64,000 bases of DNA from assembly GCA_963674965.2 (NCBI GenBank), contig CAXXFL010000006.1, forward strand, positions 704,001 to 768,000, given 5' to 3'. This document shows, piece by piece, positions 29,300 through 41,877 of this stretch. The position numbers and the translations under genes were made by a program. Numbering within the stretch: the stretch's first letter is position 1; each line of letters begins with the position of its first letter. The stretch is from a bacterium (GTDB lineage Bacteria > RBG-13-61-14 > DATKZS01). The notes under the pieces were generated by a model. It made no database searches, was not told the origin of the DNA, and saw nothing but the letters and a program-made list of their open reading frames with translations.

Positions 29300-29355
29300 G
29301 AGGTCCATTTCTCCAGGAAAGATTTCGGCGACTCCTTCGTAACTCGTGGCCGCGA
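29300..29355 (+). ncRNA. orphan fragment of an IS110/IS1111 bridge-RNA-like sequence
   Basis: TTTCGGCGACTCCTTCGTAACTCGTGGCCGCGA differs at two positions from TTTCGGCGACTCCTTGGTAACCCGTGGCCGCGA at about 38953-38985. Confidence 0.6.
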
Positions 29356-35767: not shown

Positions 35768-37552
35768 CTAATCATCAACGTATTGTATTCCTAATTCCTT
35801 GTTCACTTCTTCTCTAATCCTTAATACATCATCCGCAGTAGGTGTGCGTCCTAGGTCTTCAATTTTTTGTTTTGTTAATTCATTTACAAGACCACCACCT
35901 TTGCCTTTATGTATTCGATTATGCTCATCAATATCAATCTTCCTTCTATTGGGAAAACCTGGTTTTCCTCTTACGTTAGGATTGTTAGCAACGTCAGACG
36001 GTAAATGCTTATCCAATACCTCTTTCGGGGTCTGGTGATGCATATGCGTGCCTTTTGACACACCTTTACTCGCGTCGAGAATCTCATCAGCCGCGTCCAC
36101 CGCGTTAAAGAGCTTTTTATTATTCCTCGACATTATATAATAAAACATGGCGCAATCGTCCAATGGTATTGGAGTCGATTCCGCCGTGGCCATGCCATGA
36201 GCCGCGATATCGTCCATGGGCAAGCCTATTTTTTCACCCGCAGCGTCAACGGCCATTCCCGGCCCAGTTATTGGTATGGTTGCTACTTGGAAAGAAGTGT
36301 CAGTGCCTTGTCTAAATTCTTCCATTCCTTTATCGGATATTGGATCGGCCCCTAATAATTCACCTCCGGCATCAACGCCCTCAATTGTTCCCCTTGCGAT
36401 TATAACCGACAACCCTCCTACGGCGCCAGCGATGACAAAGCCCTGAACCACTGGGCCAATCCAGACCGGGATATTGCCATCCGCGTCCTGGAAAACGAAA
36501 GGGTTGTTATGGCTATATGCGTACTGATTAAGAAGTCCCGGAACGGGGTCTCTACTCACGAACCTCCCCAGGTCCGGGTCGTACCAGCGGGCGCCGAGTT
36601 GGTAGAGGCCGACGTCATTGTCGGAGCGGCGGCCTACGAAGCCGTGGGTGATGGAGGAGTTGGTTATGGTGAGGGGGTGGGAGGGCGAGCCGGCGAAGTC
36701 GGAGCCGAAGGGGAGGTAGGCGCGGCGCCAGACGGTCTCGCCGTCGGAGTTGGTGGCGACCACCGGGGAGTGGAGACCGTAGTGGAGGTAGAGCCGCTGG
36801 GAGATATTGACCGAGGCGGCGCCCGAGTCGAGGAGGCTCGAGCCCGAGTCGTCCACCACGTCAATGTCGAAATTTCCCGAGGCGTCGTCCCCGAGGTCTC
36901 CCGTGTCTATAAAAATATAAGTCGCGCCCTCGGACACGGCCACCTCGATGGCGTAAACCGAGCCCGACCCATTATCGAAGCGCACCGTGTACGTCCCCGC
37001 GTCCAGCGCCTTCGCCACGGACAGCTTGAGAGTGTCGCCCTCCTCGAGCTCGTCGGACCAGGTGTCGCCGTCGCCGAGGGTCAGCTCGCCGATGGCGCTC
37101 TCGGCCAGGAGCCGTAGCCGCGCCGCGTCCAGCTCGGGCGTCGCCGAGTCGCCCTCCCCCGGCCCGCAAAGCTGGGTCGCTCCGTCCATGACGGAGGTCA
37201 CGCCGTCGCACAGCCCGTCGCCGTCGGTGTCCGGATTGAATGGGTTGGTATAGAAATACCCCGAGTTCAGGTACTCCTCGAGGTTGGTCCTCCCGTCCCC
37301 GTCGGGGTCCTCGGCCGCGTCGCCCACCAGCGGGTCCAGCCCGGCCACGACCTCCCAATAATCGTCGATCCCGTCCCCATCCGAGTCGGCCAACAGCGGG
37401 TTGGTCCCCAGCCTCGCCTCGATAATGGCCGCCATCCCGTCCCCGTCGAAATCCGCCACCGCCGTATCGCACTCCACCACCACCGGATCGAACCCAAGGC
37501 TATCCGCGTACTCCACCTCCCACCCGTCCGTGAAGCCGTCAAAGTCGGAATC
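35768..37552 (-). CDS. orphan cassette 3: conserved region, Rhs core and DUF2380/AHH-like HNH toxin (probably silent)
   Basis: NNPFVFQDADG; tip has MHHQTP...EHNRIH..GGG..N. Confidence 0.72.
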   Translation of the reverse strand, partial: DSDFDGFTDGWEVEYADSLGFDPVVVECDTAVADFDGDGMAAIIEARLGTNPLLADSDGDGIDDYWEVVAGLDPLVGDAAEDPDGDGRTNLEEYLNSGYFYTNPFNPDTDGDGLCDGVTSVMDGATQLCGPGEGDSATPELDAARLRLLAESAIGELTLGDGDTWSDELEEGDTLKLSVAKALDAGTYTVRFDNGSGSVYAIEVAVSEGATYIFIDTGDLGDDASGNFDIDVVDDSGSSLLDSGAASVNISQRLYLHYGLHSPVVATNSDGETVWRRAYLPFGSDFAGSPSHPLTITNSSITHGFVGRRSDNDVGLYQLGARWYDPDLGRFVSRDPVPGLLNQYAYSHNNPFVFQDADGNIPVWIGPVVQGFVIAGAVGGLSVIIARGTIEGVDAGGELLGADPISDKGMEEFRQGTDTSFQVATIPITGPGMAVDAAGEKIGLPMDDIAAHGMATAESTPIPLDDCAMFYYIMSRNNKKLFNAVDAADEILDASKGVSKGTHMHHQTPKEVLDKHLPSDVANNPNVRGKPGFPNRRKIDIDEHNRIHKGKGGGLVNELTKQKIEDLGRTPTADDVLRIREEVNKELGIQYVDD

Positions 37553-37786
37553 GGCGGAAGTAATAATGACAAGTTTTCAAAGAACGTAGTTACATCATTA
37601 TCGACAACCTAAGCAGAGGTCATCCTTTGGAAACGATTCTCTATGACCTGCTCGCTATGCTCGCCCACATAGCGGAGCTATGTGTAAACATGAAAGCGGG
37701 CTGTCCTCCAAGACGGTTTGAGGTATAACCGTAAACCAAGGGGTTGCAATGCAGGGCCCCAAATAAATGAAGGGAGGTACAGCCCA

Positions 37787-38872
37787 ATGACAACTTATCT
37801 CGGATTGGACGTGCATTCAAGGAGGACGGTGTTCGTGGCCCAGGAGGAGGACGGAAAAATAATCGCCCGGGGGGACGTGGCTACCGACCGCGCCGGCTTC
37901 GAGGAACTTCTCGGCCGGCTCGGAGGCGAGCTCGGGATCAAGACCGGCCTGGAGAGCGGGGCCCAGTCCTTTTGGGTCAGCGAGCAACTCTCCGAGCTGG
38001 GGTTTCACCCTTACGTGATCAACGCCGCCGAAGTGCGGGCCAAGTCGCTCCGCCCCAACCAGAAGAGCGACGGCCGCGACGCCCTCGAGATTTGCGACGG
38101 TCTGCGCCGCGATCTTTACGTCAGCCGCGTCTACGTGCCCGGCCGGTCCGTTCGCCGCCTGCGGTCCCTGCTCGGCCGCCGCCGTTTTTTCATCCGCCAA
38201 ATGACGTCCCAGGTCAACTCGGCCAAGGCCCTTTTGCGGGGCGAGGGAGTTCGAGTGTCTTTCCGCCTGAACACCGCCTCAGGCTGGAAGCGGGCGCTGG
38301 AGTCCTGCCCGGACTCCTTCCAGCGCGACCTTTTGCGGATGCACTTTCGGACCTGGCGTCAGGTCTCGGAGGAAGTCGCTCGCTTGAACAAGAAAATCGA
38401 AAAGGAGGCGGGCGCCCATTTCGCCGATGCTTATCCCCTGCTCCAGACCGTCCCCGGCGTGGGTCCGGTGACGGCGGCGACCTTTCTTTCCGTTATCGCC
38501 GACGCCGGGCGGTTCGAGCGGAGCGGCCAGGCGGTAAGCTACCTTGGACTCTGTCCGTCCAGTTGGGACAGCGGCGACCGGGTGGTCCACGGCCGTATCA
38601 CCAAGCGCGGGTCCTCGGAGGCCCGCTCGATGCTGGTGGAGGCGGCCCATCACGCGGGCCGTCCCACTCACCCCCTCAACCCGTATTTCGCCCGGGTGGC
38701 GGCGAGGCAGGGTTACAAGAAGGCGGTGGTCTGCGTGGCCCAGCGGCTTTGCCGCGTCATGTGGAGAATGATGTTGGACGGCGAGGAATTCGACGCGGGC
38801 AAGCTCAACGTGACGCCCACGAGCAAGGTCAAGACGAGGAAGTATTACTGGAAGATCAAGGAGGCCGTTTGA
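37787..38872 (+). CDS. IS110 family DEDD recombinase/transposase
   Basis: GLDVH, LESG, KSDGRDA, TVPGVG, SYLGLCP..SG, ITKRG; GGAGG RBS. Confidence 0.95.
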   Translation: MTTYLGLDVHSRRTVFVAQEEDGKIIARGDVATDRAGFEELLGRLGGELGIKTGLESGAQSFWVSEQLSELGFHPYVINAAEVRAKSLRPNQKSDGRDALEICDGLRRDLYVSRVYVPGRSVRRLRSLLGRRRFFIRQMTSQVNSAKALLRGEGVRVSFRLNTASGWKRALESCPDSFQRDLLRMHFRTWRQVSEEVARLNKKIEKEAGAHFADAYPLLQTVPGVGPVTAATFLSVIADAGRFERSGQAVSYLGLCPSSWDSGDRVVHGRITKRGSSEARSMLVEAAHHAGRPTHPLNPYFARVAARQGYKKAVVCVAQRLCRVMWRMMLDGEEFDAGKLNVTPTSKVKTRKYYWKIKEAV

Positions 38873-38914
38873 CTCGTTGAGGTCGCGTCCGTGACTTGGC
38901 CGGCTTGAGGGCGG

Positions 38915-39095
38915 GCCAGGAGGCGCGAGAATCCGTGTCACTCCAAAATAGTTTTCGGCGACTCCTTGGTAACCCGTGGCCGCGAAGGCCTTCTATGTGT
39001 ATGGAGCAACGCCGGGACACCGAACGTATTCGTGAGGCTTACGACCTCTTGACCTCGAATAGATGGTTGGAGGGAGGCACGGACCGGGGGGCGCT
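38915..39095 (+). ncRNA. predicted bridge RNA/seekRNA of the IS1111 element (boundaries approximate)
   Basis: Loop segments GGTAACCCG (38968-76) and CTATGTG (38993-99) match the insertion target; ATAGATG (39059-65) matches the circle junction. Confidence 0.78.
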
Positions 39096-39294
39096 TTTTC
39101 ATCTTTCCGTCATGGGATTGACCCGAAACAATCCCGCCCTCCGTCCCTCGCCCGCTCGGTCCTCCGGTCATGATTCTTTCGGGTAAAGGAGGGTAGACGG
39201 AAAGAAGAAAAAGCTTTGGCAACTGGAGGATGAGACCGTCCAGGGTTGACAATTTGCTTTCATAGATGGGTTACCTGTTGTTATGAGTAACACG

Positions 39295-39909
39295 TCACTT
39301 GTTACTTTTCATTATTTTATCTATATATATTTCTGCGGTTATACCAGATGGTTTCCCTTTAGTTCCAAAGCGCAATTCTTCAATAATCTGTTCCAACTTT
39401 TCAGTTGGGCCAATTTCATTTAGCAGAACCATTAGGTGCATCAATCTTTGAAACTTCGTTAAGCCTGGAGATCTACCCGAAATCCATAGATCTCTTAATG
39501 CGCTGTTACTGGAATATTTTTGCAGCTCTGGAATAATATAATGCCCAGTGCTTGTAAGAATTTCCTCATCGAGACCGGCAAGGTTTGAATTGTCATTGAT
39601 TGTCCACCATGTATCCTTAGGCTGGGGCAATATATGTCCTATACGTTGACGAAAGTGACAATCTTCAATCTTTGGACGTTTAATTGGTTCATTATAAAAT
39701 TGAAAGAGTATTTGTGATGATATCCCAATATTAATCGTAAATATGACTTCATGCTTAGTACTTTTTGTGCTTTTTTGAAAGTTAATGAGTCTCCATATAT
39801 CATCTTTAAAAAGCAAGTAAGTATTGCCATAACGTTTATAACCATGTGCCGATAATAATGGCTTGATCTGCCCCCTCACTAATCTGTTAAATTCAGATGA
39901 AGCTTCCAT
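39295..39909 (-). CDS. DUF4304-like putative immunity protein
   Basis: IKPLL...GYKR.G, INFQKS, FTINIGI, RQRIG motifs; GGAG RBS. Confidence 0.75.
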   Translation of the reverse strand: MEASSEFNRLVRGQIKPLLSAHGYKRYGNTYLLFKDDIWRLINFQKSTKSTKHEVIFTINIGISSQILFQFYNEPIKRPKIEDCHFRQRIGHILPQPKDTWWTINDNSNLAGLDEEILTSTGHYIIPELQKYSSNSALRDLWISGRSPGLTKFQRLMHLMVLLNEIGPTEKLEQIIEELRFGTKGKPSGITAEIYIDKIMKSNK

Positions 39910-40137
39910 TTTGATAAATCTCCTTAATAAGGGTCTATACCTACAATTTATTGACCATTCCTTGCTTTGAATACCACGTCGATTATTTACTTATTATAAG
40001 ATATCGGAAAAATCTTATCGAAAGCTTTGTCATTTTATTCAGGTAACTATTTAAAATTAATGCCGACTAGTAATGATTGCCTCGCAATAACTATTACGCA
40101 AATATTATATTCAATATTATTGAAATTTCGTAACACT

Positions 40138-41877
40138 CTAATTGTCCCGCACGATATTGACAATATATTCTTTAAAAATATCAAGCCATTTATCTTTTGC
40201 TCTCTGCGAAGGTTTATAAGGTGAATTTCCCGTTTTAGTCTCAATTCCACCCAGTACCTCACCGTCTTTGCTGACCTCAATGTCTATACGACGTTTTCCA
40301 AACCAAGTTTTTTTCGTCACCTCTTTTTCGACTTCATACCCATTTTTCTCAATTAATTCAGCTATCTCGTCACGAAAAGCGTCTCCTTTTGCTTTATTTT
40401 TTGATAATTGAGAAGCTTTAGATGATCTCCCCGCATTTGCGGCTGCCATTTCCTCACCGGCGACAGCTTTGGCCCCAAGGCCCATAGCCCCTAGTTCAGC
40501 TATACTGCCAAAAAGCTGAATGTCGTTTTTACACGCGAAGCTCCCGCCGATTCCATAAGCCCAATACTCAGCTGACCCTTGTTCTGATGCCTCGGCCATG
40601 GCCCACCAATCCTCATGGGCGGTACCGGTGAAAAAGTCATGAGTATCTTCCCATGCCAAGATTTCCGACTCCGTGCCCTCTATGTAATACATTGCGGTAT
40701 CAAGTCCCGGCACCTTTACAACCTCATTGATTTTTATCCATGGGCTGAGGGCTTGTTTGACGACTCCGGTGGTAAATTGTTCGAAAAACAAACCGGAAGC
40801 ATCATGATAAACGAACGGATTGTTATTGGCGTAAGAGTACTGGTTCAGAAGGCCAGACACCGGGTCTGTGCTCACGAACCTCCCCAGGTCCGGGTCGTAC
40901 CACCTTGCTCCCAACTGGTAGAGGCCGACGTCGTTGTCTTGTCGGCGGCCGACGAAGCCGTGGGTGATGGAGGAGTTGGCGATGGTGAGGGGGTGGGAGG
41001 GCGAGCCGGCGAAGTCGGCGCCGAAGGGGAGGTAGGCGCGGCGCCAGACGGTCTCGCCGTCGGAGTTGGTGGCGACCACCGGGGAGTGGAGCCCGTAGTG
41101 GAGGTAGAGGCGCTGGGAGATATTGACCGAGGCGGCGCCCGAGTCGAGGAGGCTCGAGCCCGAGTCGTCAACCACGTCAATGTCGTATGAGCCGGAGCCG
41201 GCGTCGTCCCCGAGGTCTCCCGTGTCTATAAATATATAAGTCGCGCCCTCGGACACGGCCACCTCGATGGCGTAAACCGAGCCCGACCCATTATCGAACC
41301 GAACCGTGTACGTCCCCGCGTCCAGCGCCCCCGCCACGGACAGCTTGAGAGTGTCGCCCTCCTCGAGCTCGTCGGACCAGGTGTCGCCGTCGCCGAGGGT
41401 CAACTCGCCGATGGCGCTCTCGGCCAGGAGCCGAAGCCGCGCCGCGTCCAGCTCGGGCGTCGCCGAGTCGCCCTCCCCCGGCCCGCAGAGCACGGTCTCG
41501 CCGCTCATGGCGGAGGTCACGCCGTCGCACAGCCCGTCGCCGTCGGTATCGGGATTCAGGGGATTGGTGTAGAAGTAGCCCGAGTTCTGGTATTCCTCGA
41601 GATTGGTCCTGCCGTCCCCGTCGGGGTCCTCCAAGGAGTCTCCCACCAGCGGGTCCAGCCCGGCGATGACCTCCCAATAATCGTCGATCCCGTCCCCATC
41701 CGAGTCGGCCAACAGCGGGTTGGTCCCCAGCCTCGCCTCGATAATGGCCGCCATCCCGTCGCCGTCATAATCCGCCACCGCCTCATTGCAATTTACCACC
41801 TCCGGGTCGAAGCCAAGGGTGTTGGAGTACTCGACCTCCCACCCGTCCGTGAAGCCGTCAAAGTCGGAATCGATGGA
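40138..41877 (-). CDS. orphan cassette 2: conserved region, Rhs core and PD-(D/E)xK nuclease toxin (probably silent)
   Basis: [11 protein letters not shown]; tip GKRRIDI...IETKTG...SQRAKD. Confidence 0.78.

Follow-up and report, generated by a model that had tools for sequence, protein, structure and literature searches.

We analysed a 64,000-nucleotide window (contig CAXXFL010000006.1, positions 704,001 to 768,000 of the forward strand, assembly GCA_963674965.2) from a bacterium of the GTDB lineage RBG-13-61-14; DATKZS01, and found in it a 1586-bp repeated unit at 37683-39268 on the plus strand. We judge it, with a probability of about 0.9, to be an insertion sequence of the IS1111 group of the IS110 family, in which the 3′ non-coding region supplies an RNA of about 150 nt as the guide of a DEDD recombinase. 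The unit is present in four identical copies that share one type of target site, and its protein belongs to the IS110 family. The structure of the RNA, and the four segments by which it would pair with the target and with the ends of the element, covary in relatives. The element is complete, and it is probably recently active and still mobile.

Ends, copies and target site of the element

In the genome (6.5 Mb) the four full copies are 100% identical over exactly positions 1-1586 of the unit and diverge immediately beyond both ends. These are the boundaries that a preliminary description, made from the letters of the window, had proposed. Read on the gene strand, the unit in the window is preceded by ..gagCTATG and followed by GGTTACCtg; the corresponding flanks are ..ttCTATG and GGTTCACg for the second copy, ..gagCTATG and GGTTACGcc for the third, and ..ggCAATG and GGTTACCtg for the fourth. 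The flanks common to these different insertion sites are thus ..(C)TATG and GGTT(A/C).. Two truncated remnants, one a 151-bp right end followed by GGTTACGCC and the other a 63-bp left end preceded by gagctata, lie at the same type of site, so that all four full copies and both remnants share one site type and one orientation. The preliminary description had named insertions at unrelated sites as the observation that would speak against it; all copies and remnants were found at related sites.

The restored target CTATG-TG-GGTTAC (CTATGTGGGTTAC) occurs uninterrupted seven times in the genome. Therefore the element is 1584 bp long and inserted without target duplication, the latter being concluded from paralogous sites and not from an empty allele of the same locus. 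The length is 1584 and not 1586 bp because one of the two terminal TGs belongs to the target. Assigning the left or the right TG to the element is a matter of convention; the convention of the family gives the left TG to the element and the right one to the target, which places the element proper at 37683-39266 on the plus strand. The target sequence including the TG crossover is CTATGTGGGTTACC. Its left half, CTATG (37678-37682), ends the left flank (37664-37682), itself a piece of a palindromic repeat of the genome (CCCACATAGC gga GCTATG..), and the TG with the right flank GGTTACC, the right target half, covers 39267-39275.

The unit starts with TG-TAAAC-ATGAAAGC and ends with GCTTTCAT-AGA-TG. 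The left terminal extension TGTAAAC (37683-37689, 7 bp), whose TG is the crossover dinucleotide, is followed by the left subterminal inverted repeat ATGAAAGC (37690-37697), the reverse complement of 39256-39263. At the other end, 39256-39266 comprises the right subterminal repeat GCTTTCAT (39256-63) and the 3-bp extension AGA (39264-66). The repeat is perfect over 8 bp and matches at 12 of 16 positions when extended, while in close relatives it reaches up to 16. Relatives also have the subterminal repeat and keep the 7-bp left and 3-bp right spacing, which is that described for the IS1111 family (7, or 6, and 3 bp; PMC11187229).

A perfect 10-bp palindrome, CCCACATAGC-gga-GCTATGTGGG, provides the target as its right arm; it lies within a longer repeat that gave 30 matches in a genome search and is seen in the window at 37640-37682 and 39269-39290. 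This repeat often carries two tandem sites, 36 or 22 bp apart. A form of the site that is 2 bp shorter, CTATGGGTTAC, also occurs seven times; it lacks exactly one crossover TG, while its left palindrome arm still has CACA, and it could reflect slippage or be the trace of an imprecise excision. Palindromic targets are common among the relatives (for example, AACTCGCATGCCC-CG / CG-GGGCATGCGAGTT in locus L050), and the use of repeated extragenic palindromes is a known habit of the family (PMC11208160).

We also looked at the window copy in relation to the two-site form of the repeat. Its left flank comes from site 1 (gagCTATG, 37661-37682) and its right flank from site 2 (GGTTACCTGTTG, 39269-39280). 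As no uninterrupted CTATGTGGGTTACCTG is present in the genome, the intervening 36 bp may have been lost in an event linked to the element. The repeat was considered as an integron attC site as well, and this was rejected, although by eye only: its right end, GTTAC(G/C)(C/T), fits the motif GTTRRRY poorly. In addition, G000 C5:429766-429930 holds a left end of a related element (87% identical) and, 9 bp further on, an inverted right end (84% identical); this may be a rearranged remnant or the product of nested insertions.

The recombinase gene (37787-38872, plus strand) encodes a protein of 361 amino acids. Its N-terminal part matches Pfam PF01548 (DEDD_Tnp_IS110; residues 5-151, E 3.2e-17) and its C-terminal part PF02371 (Transposase_20; E 5e-22). 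The residues D8, E56, D95 and D98 were invariant in an alignment with 32 homologues. The stretch SYLGLCPSSWDSG, G254-L-C-P257-S-S-W-D-S262-G263, conforms to the transposase motif GL-P----S(T)G described for IS1111 (PMC11187229). The NCBIfam model NF033542, 'IS110 family RNA-guided transposase', scored 219 bits against a cut-off of 140; this model lumps the IS1111 and IS110 groups together. The closest solved structures are the transposases of ISCro4 and IS621 (E about 1e-10, through the C-terminal domain). The assignment to the IS1111 type made in the preliminary description thus agrees with the DEDD and PF02371 domains, the GL-P----SG motif, the subterminal repeat, the extensions of 7 and 3 bp and the long downstream non-coding region.

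Homologues are plentiful in metagenomes, where 1541 proteins had E ≤1e-20 among 8000 candidates scored, the best one other than the protein itself being 66% identical. Within the host phylum they are rare: only three of the 13 genomes, the present one among them, have a homologue. Two of the three hold just a partial copy at a contig end; one of these copies, L019, was usable, and the other, L018, has a short non-coding region without a recognisable guide RNA. The best tblastn matches among plasmid-borne IS110-family genes are at most 33% identical. A search of genome contigs with the single recombinase protein gave only two distant loci, at 28% identity, which were of no use for RNA comparison.

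Predicted guide RNA and its DNA partners

The non-coding sequence amounts to 396 nt downstream of the recombinase gene and 104 nt upstream. In the downstream part we place the guide RNA (a bridge or long seek RNA of about 150 nt) at 38932-39083 on the plus strand. An outer stem, P5 (38932-46 with 39067-83, as 38932-39 / 39076-83 and 38941-46 / 39067-72), is predicted to enclose both a target stem-loop and a small conserved hairpin. The stem-loop is made of P1 (38953-60 / 39010-17), P2 (38962-65 / 39003-06) and P3 (38978-81 / 38987-90, GGCC/GGCC), with the two target guides in its internal loop. The hairpin, P4 (UGAGGC ... GACCUCG, 39033-39057), pairs 39033-37 with 39053-57. All strings named in the preliminary description (GGTAACCCG, CTATGTG, ATAGATG, TTACG, TTGACA and the GGCC/GGCC hairpin) are where it had put them, and the stem that it had placed around this hairpin is formed by CGGCG (38956-60) and CTCC (38962-65) with GGAG (39003-06) and CGCCG (39009-13).

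The 5′ target guide GGTAACCCG (38968-38976) would pair with the top strand TG-GGTTACC, which is the crossover dinucleotide and the right flank; eight of the nine positions are Watson-Crick pairs and one is a G-T wobble. The 3′ target guide CTATGTG (38993-38999) has the same sense as the left flank plus TG and would pair, at seven of seven positions, with the bottom strand CTATG-TG. Its match extends by 2 nt (UA, 39000-01) into the left-end sequence and not into the empty target, and this extension resembles, by analogy, the 'handshake' pairing described for IS621 (PMC13626964). The donor guides would flank the hairpin P4 in a multiloop, GTATTCG (39026-39032) pairing with the top strand TG-TAAAC of the left end and ATAGATG (39059-39065), which has the same sense as the right end ATAGA plus TG, with the bottom strand ATAGA-TG.

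The matches of the target guides exceed chance. None of 20,000 dinucleotide shuffles of the 396-nt region held both target matches in order within 60 nt, and when random genomic 14-mers were used as mock targets, only 17 of 200,000 found such a pair in the real region.

To compare the RNA between elements, a profile scan of metagenome contigs was performed. It gave 198 relatives, of which 80 loci with 41-64% protein identity were kept. The motif CCTCGAATAG, allowing up to two mismatches, was sought downstream of the gene in 83 sequences (the 80 loci, L018, L019 and the window), and 72 had a match; in eight of the other 11, the contig ends too early after the gene. Seven matches were dropped before alignment: those in L018, L043, L062, L097 and L098, regarded as chance matches outside an RNA-like context, that in L090, which could be aligned only poorly, and that in L036, where the contig stops 3 nt past the motif. 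The resulting alignment A2 holds 65 sequences, 64 of them distinct. Element ends of the relatives were placed by their subterminal repeats. The 5′ target guide was taken as the 9 nt before the conserved U preceding P3; own and cross pairings were both scored in whichever of three registers fitted best.

It was found that the guides follow the DNA of their own element. Among 50 distinct 5′ target guides from 55 loci, pairing with the own right junction averaged 7.2 of 9 Watson-Crick pairs, compared with 4.1 for the junctions of other loci; at least 8 of 9 positions paired in 30 of the 50 guides but in only 1.4% of 2450 cross pairs, and none of 5000 permutations reached the observed sum. Similarly, the 3′ target guide (39 distinct guides, 48 loci) agreed on average at 6.2 of 7 positions with the left flank and dinucleotide of the same locus, against 3.0 for others, with at least 6 of 7 in 31 of the 39 (0/5000 permutations). 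The right-end donor guide tracks the DNA in all 49 relatives compared at its positions 3 (A/G) and 6 (C/T/A), and in 33 of the 49 at position 5. Pairing of the left-end donor guide had an own mean of 4.44 of 7 across the clade, compared with a cross mean of 3.18 (0/5000 permutations).

The same segments emerged when no guide positions were assumed. Mutual information was computed between each RNA column and each position of the flanks and ends, and the top matches were exactly four segments, 38968-76, 38993-99, 39059-65 and 39026-32. Positions -5 to -1 of the left flank and the first crossover base are identical to 38993-38998 in 79-98% of the relatives, and positions +2 to +7 of the right flank are complementary to 38973 down to 38968 in 72-85%. 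The crossover base and 39064, and likewise right-end position -3 and 39061, are identical in 100%, while left-end position +4 is complementary to 39027 in 96% and +5 to 39026 in 74%. Three of the guides proposed in the preliminary description, the two target guides and the right-end donor guide ATAGATG, thus each covary with their DNA partner. Its other donor guide, TTACG (39039-43), had to be given up: this string lies in the loop of P4 and has no consistent link to the left end, which is matched by 39026-39032 instead. Covariance across homologues had been suggested there as a check, and in A2 both the four guides and the stems covary.

Additionally, the dinucleotides at the two junctions were compared. 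The donor guide agrees with the left-junction dinucleotide in 49 of 49 relatives. The right-junction dinucleotide differs in seven of the 49; about half of these seven have the one that the 5′ target guide specifies. Unequal left and right dinucleotides were seen in L025, L026, L038, L040, L051, L053, L055 and L061, for example TG against AG, CA or CG, and in L025, L026, L051 and L061 the right one fits the 5′ target guide. A strict match between the crossover bases of donor and target may therefore not be required in this clade.

The structure of the RNA is also conserved through paired changes. RNAalifold on A2 returned three helices, with compensatory changes in nine of 13 pairs. When a fourth helix was added by hand, 90.5% of cells pair and 16 of 20 pairs show changes on both sides. 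None of 500 shuffles reached any of five measures of this structure, and sliding the partners by 1-3 columns lowered the pairing to 31-56%. P4 is paired in 99.5% of cells and switches from G-C to A-U in 22 of 64 rows; in most relatives it is of the type GAGGC-GAAA-GACCUC, and the window copy has a duplicated GACCTC. Because the alignment keeps neither P1 nor P5 in register, these two were tested by duplex energy, using the own strands and those of other sequences. The values were -12.4 (own) and -6.2 (cross) kcal/mol for P1 and -16.3 and -11.7 kcal/mol for P5, and in neither case did any of 5000 permutations come as low; in a control with unrelated segments, 901 of 5000 did.

Three truncated copies of the 5′ half of a related guide RNA were also noticed, at 29311-29355 in the window, at G000 C6:879308-879352, and within about 200 bp of C2:101880-101924. 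They have the guide CGTAACTCG instead of GGTAACCCG, are cut inside P3 and adjoin the sequence of genes with TSP3 repeats. These copies are remnants of an older relative, carried along in cassette duplication.

Proposed transposition cycle and alternative explanations

As the layout of the guides matches the published one, we infer for this element the cycle published for the family. Excision would give a 1584-bp circle, in which the ends meet as ..TTCATAGA-TG-TAAACATG.. (or, written differently, ..TTGACAATTTGCTTTCATAGA-TG-TAAACATGAAAGC..) with a single TG. This junction would assemble a promoter from the -35-like hexamer TTGACA of the right end (39246-39251, plus strand) and a -10-like TAAACA or TGT-AAACAT of the left end. 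The RNA, once made, would pair with the junction and with the target CTATG-TG-GGTTACC, in each case on both strands, and so align them, and the recombinase would exchange strands at the TG without duplication. Changes in the guides would then be expected to alter the target.

Some features of the DNA would fit this cycle. TTGACA is followed by 17 nt up to the terminal TG, and abutting the ends with a single TG puts TAAACA next, in agreement with the spacing given in the preliminary description; alternatively, the putative junction can be read as TTGACA, 18 nt including the TG, and AAACAT. In 51 relatives the ends could be placed without recourse to TTGAC, and 45 of these have it 11-14 nt ahead of the point where the right repeat ends; in 34 the distance is 12 nt, as in the window. 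A contig of the relative L027 (L027:1-160) contains the last 56 nt or so of the right end, a single TG and the left end, upstream of a complete copy; these abutted ends could be a circle junction, a tandem copy or a wrap-around of the assembly.

An alternative core was considered as well, with CTA-TG-GGTTAC as the empty site and a 1586-bp circle carrying two TGs, as the seven shorter-form sites might suggest. Three observations led to its rejection: the sequence CTATGTG of the 3′ target guide, the sequence ATAGA-TG of the donor guide, after which the left end continues with TAAAC, and the presence of only one TG at the L027 junction.

Several observations do not sit well with an RNA-guided element that is still at work. 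In the window copy the left-end donor guide is weak, with four Watson-Crick pairs and one wobble in seven positions, and across the clade the position facing base 2 of the left end is complementary in only 22% of the relatives. Of the 50 distinct 5′ target guides, 20 stay below 8 of 9 pairs with their own flank, some of which is due to the alignment register or to misplaced ends, and L048, L060 and L069 have no RNA motif at up to two mismatches in the 500-1050 nt downstream of the gene. The relatives are kin, and the permutation counts therefore overstate their independence. The single sequence 38930-39100 folds no more stably than its shuffles (z = -0.02; 93 of 200 fold at least as well), so that the structural support comes from covariation and not from energy. 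Rfam 15 gave no match at E ≤1 in 37000-40000. A promoter scan of the linear element returned no promoter-like site, as would be expected if the promoter formed only in the circle, yet this lends no support either; a terminator scan gave three terminator-like sites, all of them outside the non-coding region. None of the five sequencing runs that contain this DNA is recorded as RNA. No circle-junction joint was seen in the assembled contigs of four runs, in which rare forms cannot show; contigs with a loose end at 37681 or 37684 represent other copies of the target repeat.

Some of these points would also suit a true IS1111 member that has been silenced or disabled in its host, with copies left by an old burst, or by duplication of the surrounding repeat, and an RNA that is no longer made. 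The lack of an RNA run and of a circle joint, the weak left-end guide and the right subterminal repeat, which has drifted to 8 perfect bp and 12 of 16 where close relatives have 16, could all be read in this way. We nevertheless regard such an inactive element as improbable: no difference separates the four copies along their 1586 bp, and the gene has kept an intact reading frame and all conserved catalytic residues. The flanks of the copies differ on both sides, and the copies are therefore separate insertions and not the result of segmental duplication.

The choice of the target might also lie with the protein, if the latter recognised a hairpin-forming palindromic repeat and the matches in the non-coding region were incidental. 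The position of the site in a perfect 10-bp palindrome and the palindromic targets of many relatives could be explained so, but the guides change together with the flanks across relatives whose target sequences are unrelated, the guide pair did not appear in any of the 20,000 shuffles, and a requirement for the RNA has been demonstrated experimentally for other IS1111 members according to PMC11187229. Recognition by the protein is thus very unlikely. Even less probable, in our opinion, is that the guide-like strings are target DNA that was captured passively and has no function in an RNA. The truncated 5′-half copies found elsewhere in the genome, with their slightly different guide, would be compatible with capture; the strings, however, lie on opposite strands relative to the target with a hairpin between them, the internal loop is closed by stems with compensatory changes, and the same layout recurs in 64 distinct relatives.

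Other structured regions, neighbours and known relatives

Upstream of the gene, the leader (37698-37785, plus strand) can fold so that GGGCUGUCCUCC (37698-37709) pairs with GGGAGGUACAGCCC (37773-37785), covering the ribosome-binding GGGAGG. The fold has an energy of -42.2 kcal/mol (z = -3.83), and none of 200 shuffles folded as well; judged by eye, the pairing is kept through two-sided changes in L026 and L027. It most likely limits translation from read-through transcripts.

Past the guide RNA, but before the right end, a second structured module (CTTTCCGTC ... GACGGAAAG) occupies 39103-39204 on the plus strand. It has the closing stem CTTTCCGTC / GACGGAAAG and the conserved single-stranded runs AATCCCGCCCTCCG and CCGGTCATGATTCTTTCGG, and is common to the window, L023, L019 and a genomic remnant; in L019, paired changes preserve the closing stem. 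Only the closest relatives have the module, and most of the others, in which it is absent, have shorter right non-coding regions. No Rfam match was found for 39103-39204.

The neighbours of the element are cassettes of large proteins on the minus strand (35768-37516, 39295-39909 and 40138-41799). The proteins have near-identical N-terminal parts with TSP3 repeats and a common motif but differ in their C-termini, and one of the cassettes is followed by a DUF4304 protein. We take this arrangement to resemble a polymorphic toxin-immunity array. One may speculate that donor and target crossover bases need not agree in this clade, that the module of about 100 nt at 39103-39204 is an accessory or regulatory RNA of transposition, and that the element is active and reshapes the TSP3-repeat gene array through its paired target sites; we consider this reading rather unlikely.

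We compared the element by description with ISEc11, ISKpn4, ISPa11 and ISPst6 (Siddiquee et al. 2024, PMC11187229). As described there, these elements have the same DEDD recombinase with the GL-P----S/TG motif, the same downstream non-coding region, subterminal repeats and 7/3-bp extensions, no target duplication, and the same order of guides with segments that overlap in the target; in this order, the top-strand match of an IS1111 seekRNA stands 5′ of the bottom-strand match, the reverse of the IS110 type. Target sequence and host lineage differ. The size of the RNA, about 150 nt, resembles the 154 nt of an IS1111 'long seekRNA' in the same source, whereas the protein of 361 amino acids exceeds the 330-350 quoted for the family and the 8 perfect base pairs of the subterminal repeat fall short of its usual 11-13 bp.

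With IS621, in the description of Durrant et al. 2024 (PMC11208160), the element shares a single RNA that carries target and donor guides for both strands around a 2-nt crossover, a 14-nt target, a junction promoter (putative here), and a homologous C-terminal domain (E 4e-10 against structures including 8wt6). The RNA of IS621, however, is encoded in the left end upstream of the gene and has the reverse guide order, whereas here it lies in the right end; the donor guides of IS621 occupy a simple internal loop and not a multiloop around a small hairpin, the latter being an arrangement reported for the donor-binding nucleotides of many IS1111 orthologues; its core is CT, compared with TG here (C/T-G across the clade); and its subterminal repeats are only 2-3 bp long. 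ISPpu9 (PMC12288879) and ISPa11, IS110/IS1111 elements described as targeting repeated extragenic palindromes, likewise insert in such a repeat at a fixed position and in a fixed orientation. The sequence of the repeat differs, and here there are often two sites, 36 or 22 bp apart, beside the TSP3-repeat cassettes.

The element is a well-supported additional member of the described IS1111/IS110 kind, and NCBIfam already names its protein 'RNA-guided'. The preliminary description had spoken of a candidate new programmable recombinase; membership in the IS1111 type was borne out, but 'new' was too strong, since RNAs of this sort have been predicted for 93% of the IS1111 elements catalogued in PMC11208160.

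The understanding of how IS1111 elements work is unchanged by this finding. It makes all four guide-DNA pairings of one IS1111-type RNA readable, backed by covariation across some 60 uncultured relatives, in a host phylum that had only 13 genomes in the searched collection. The alignment A2 could serve as the starting point of an RNA family model, for which Rfam 15 has either no entry or none that matches. In addition, one more candidate joins the programmable recombinases; it has a TG crossover, and its donor guides would lie in a three-way junction.

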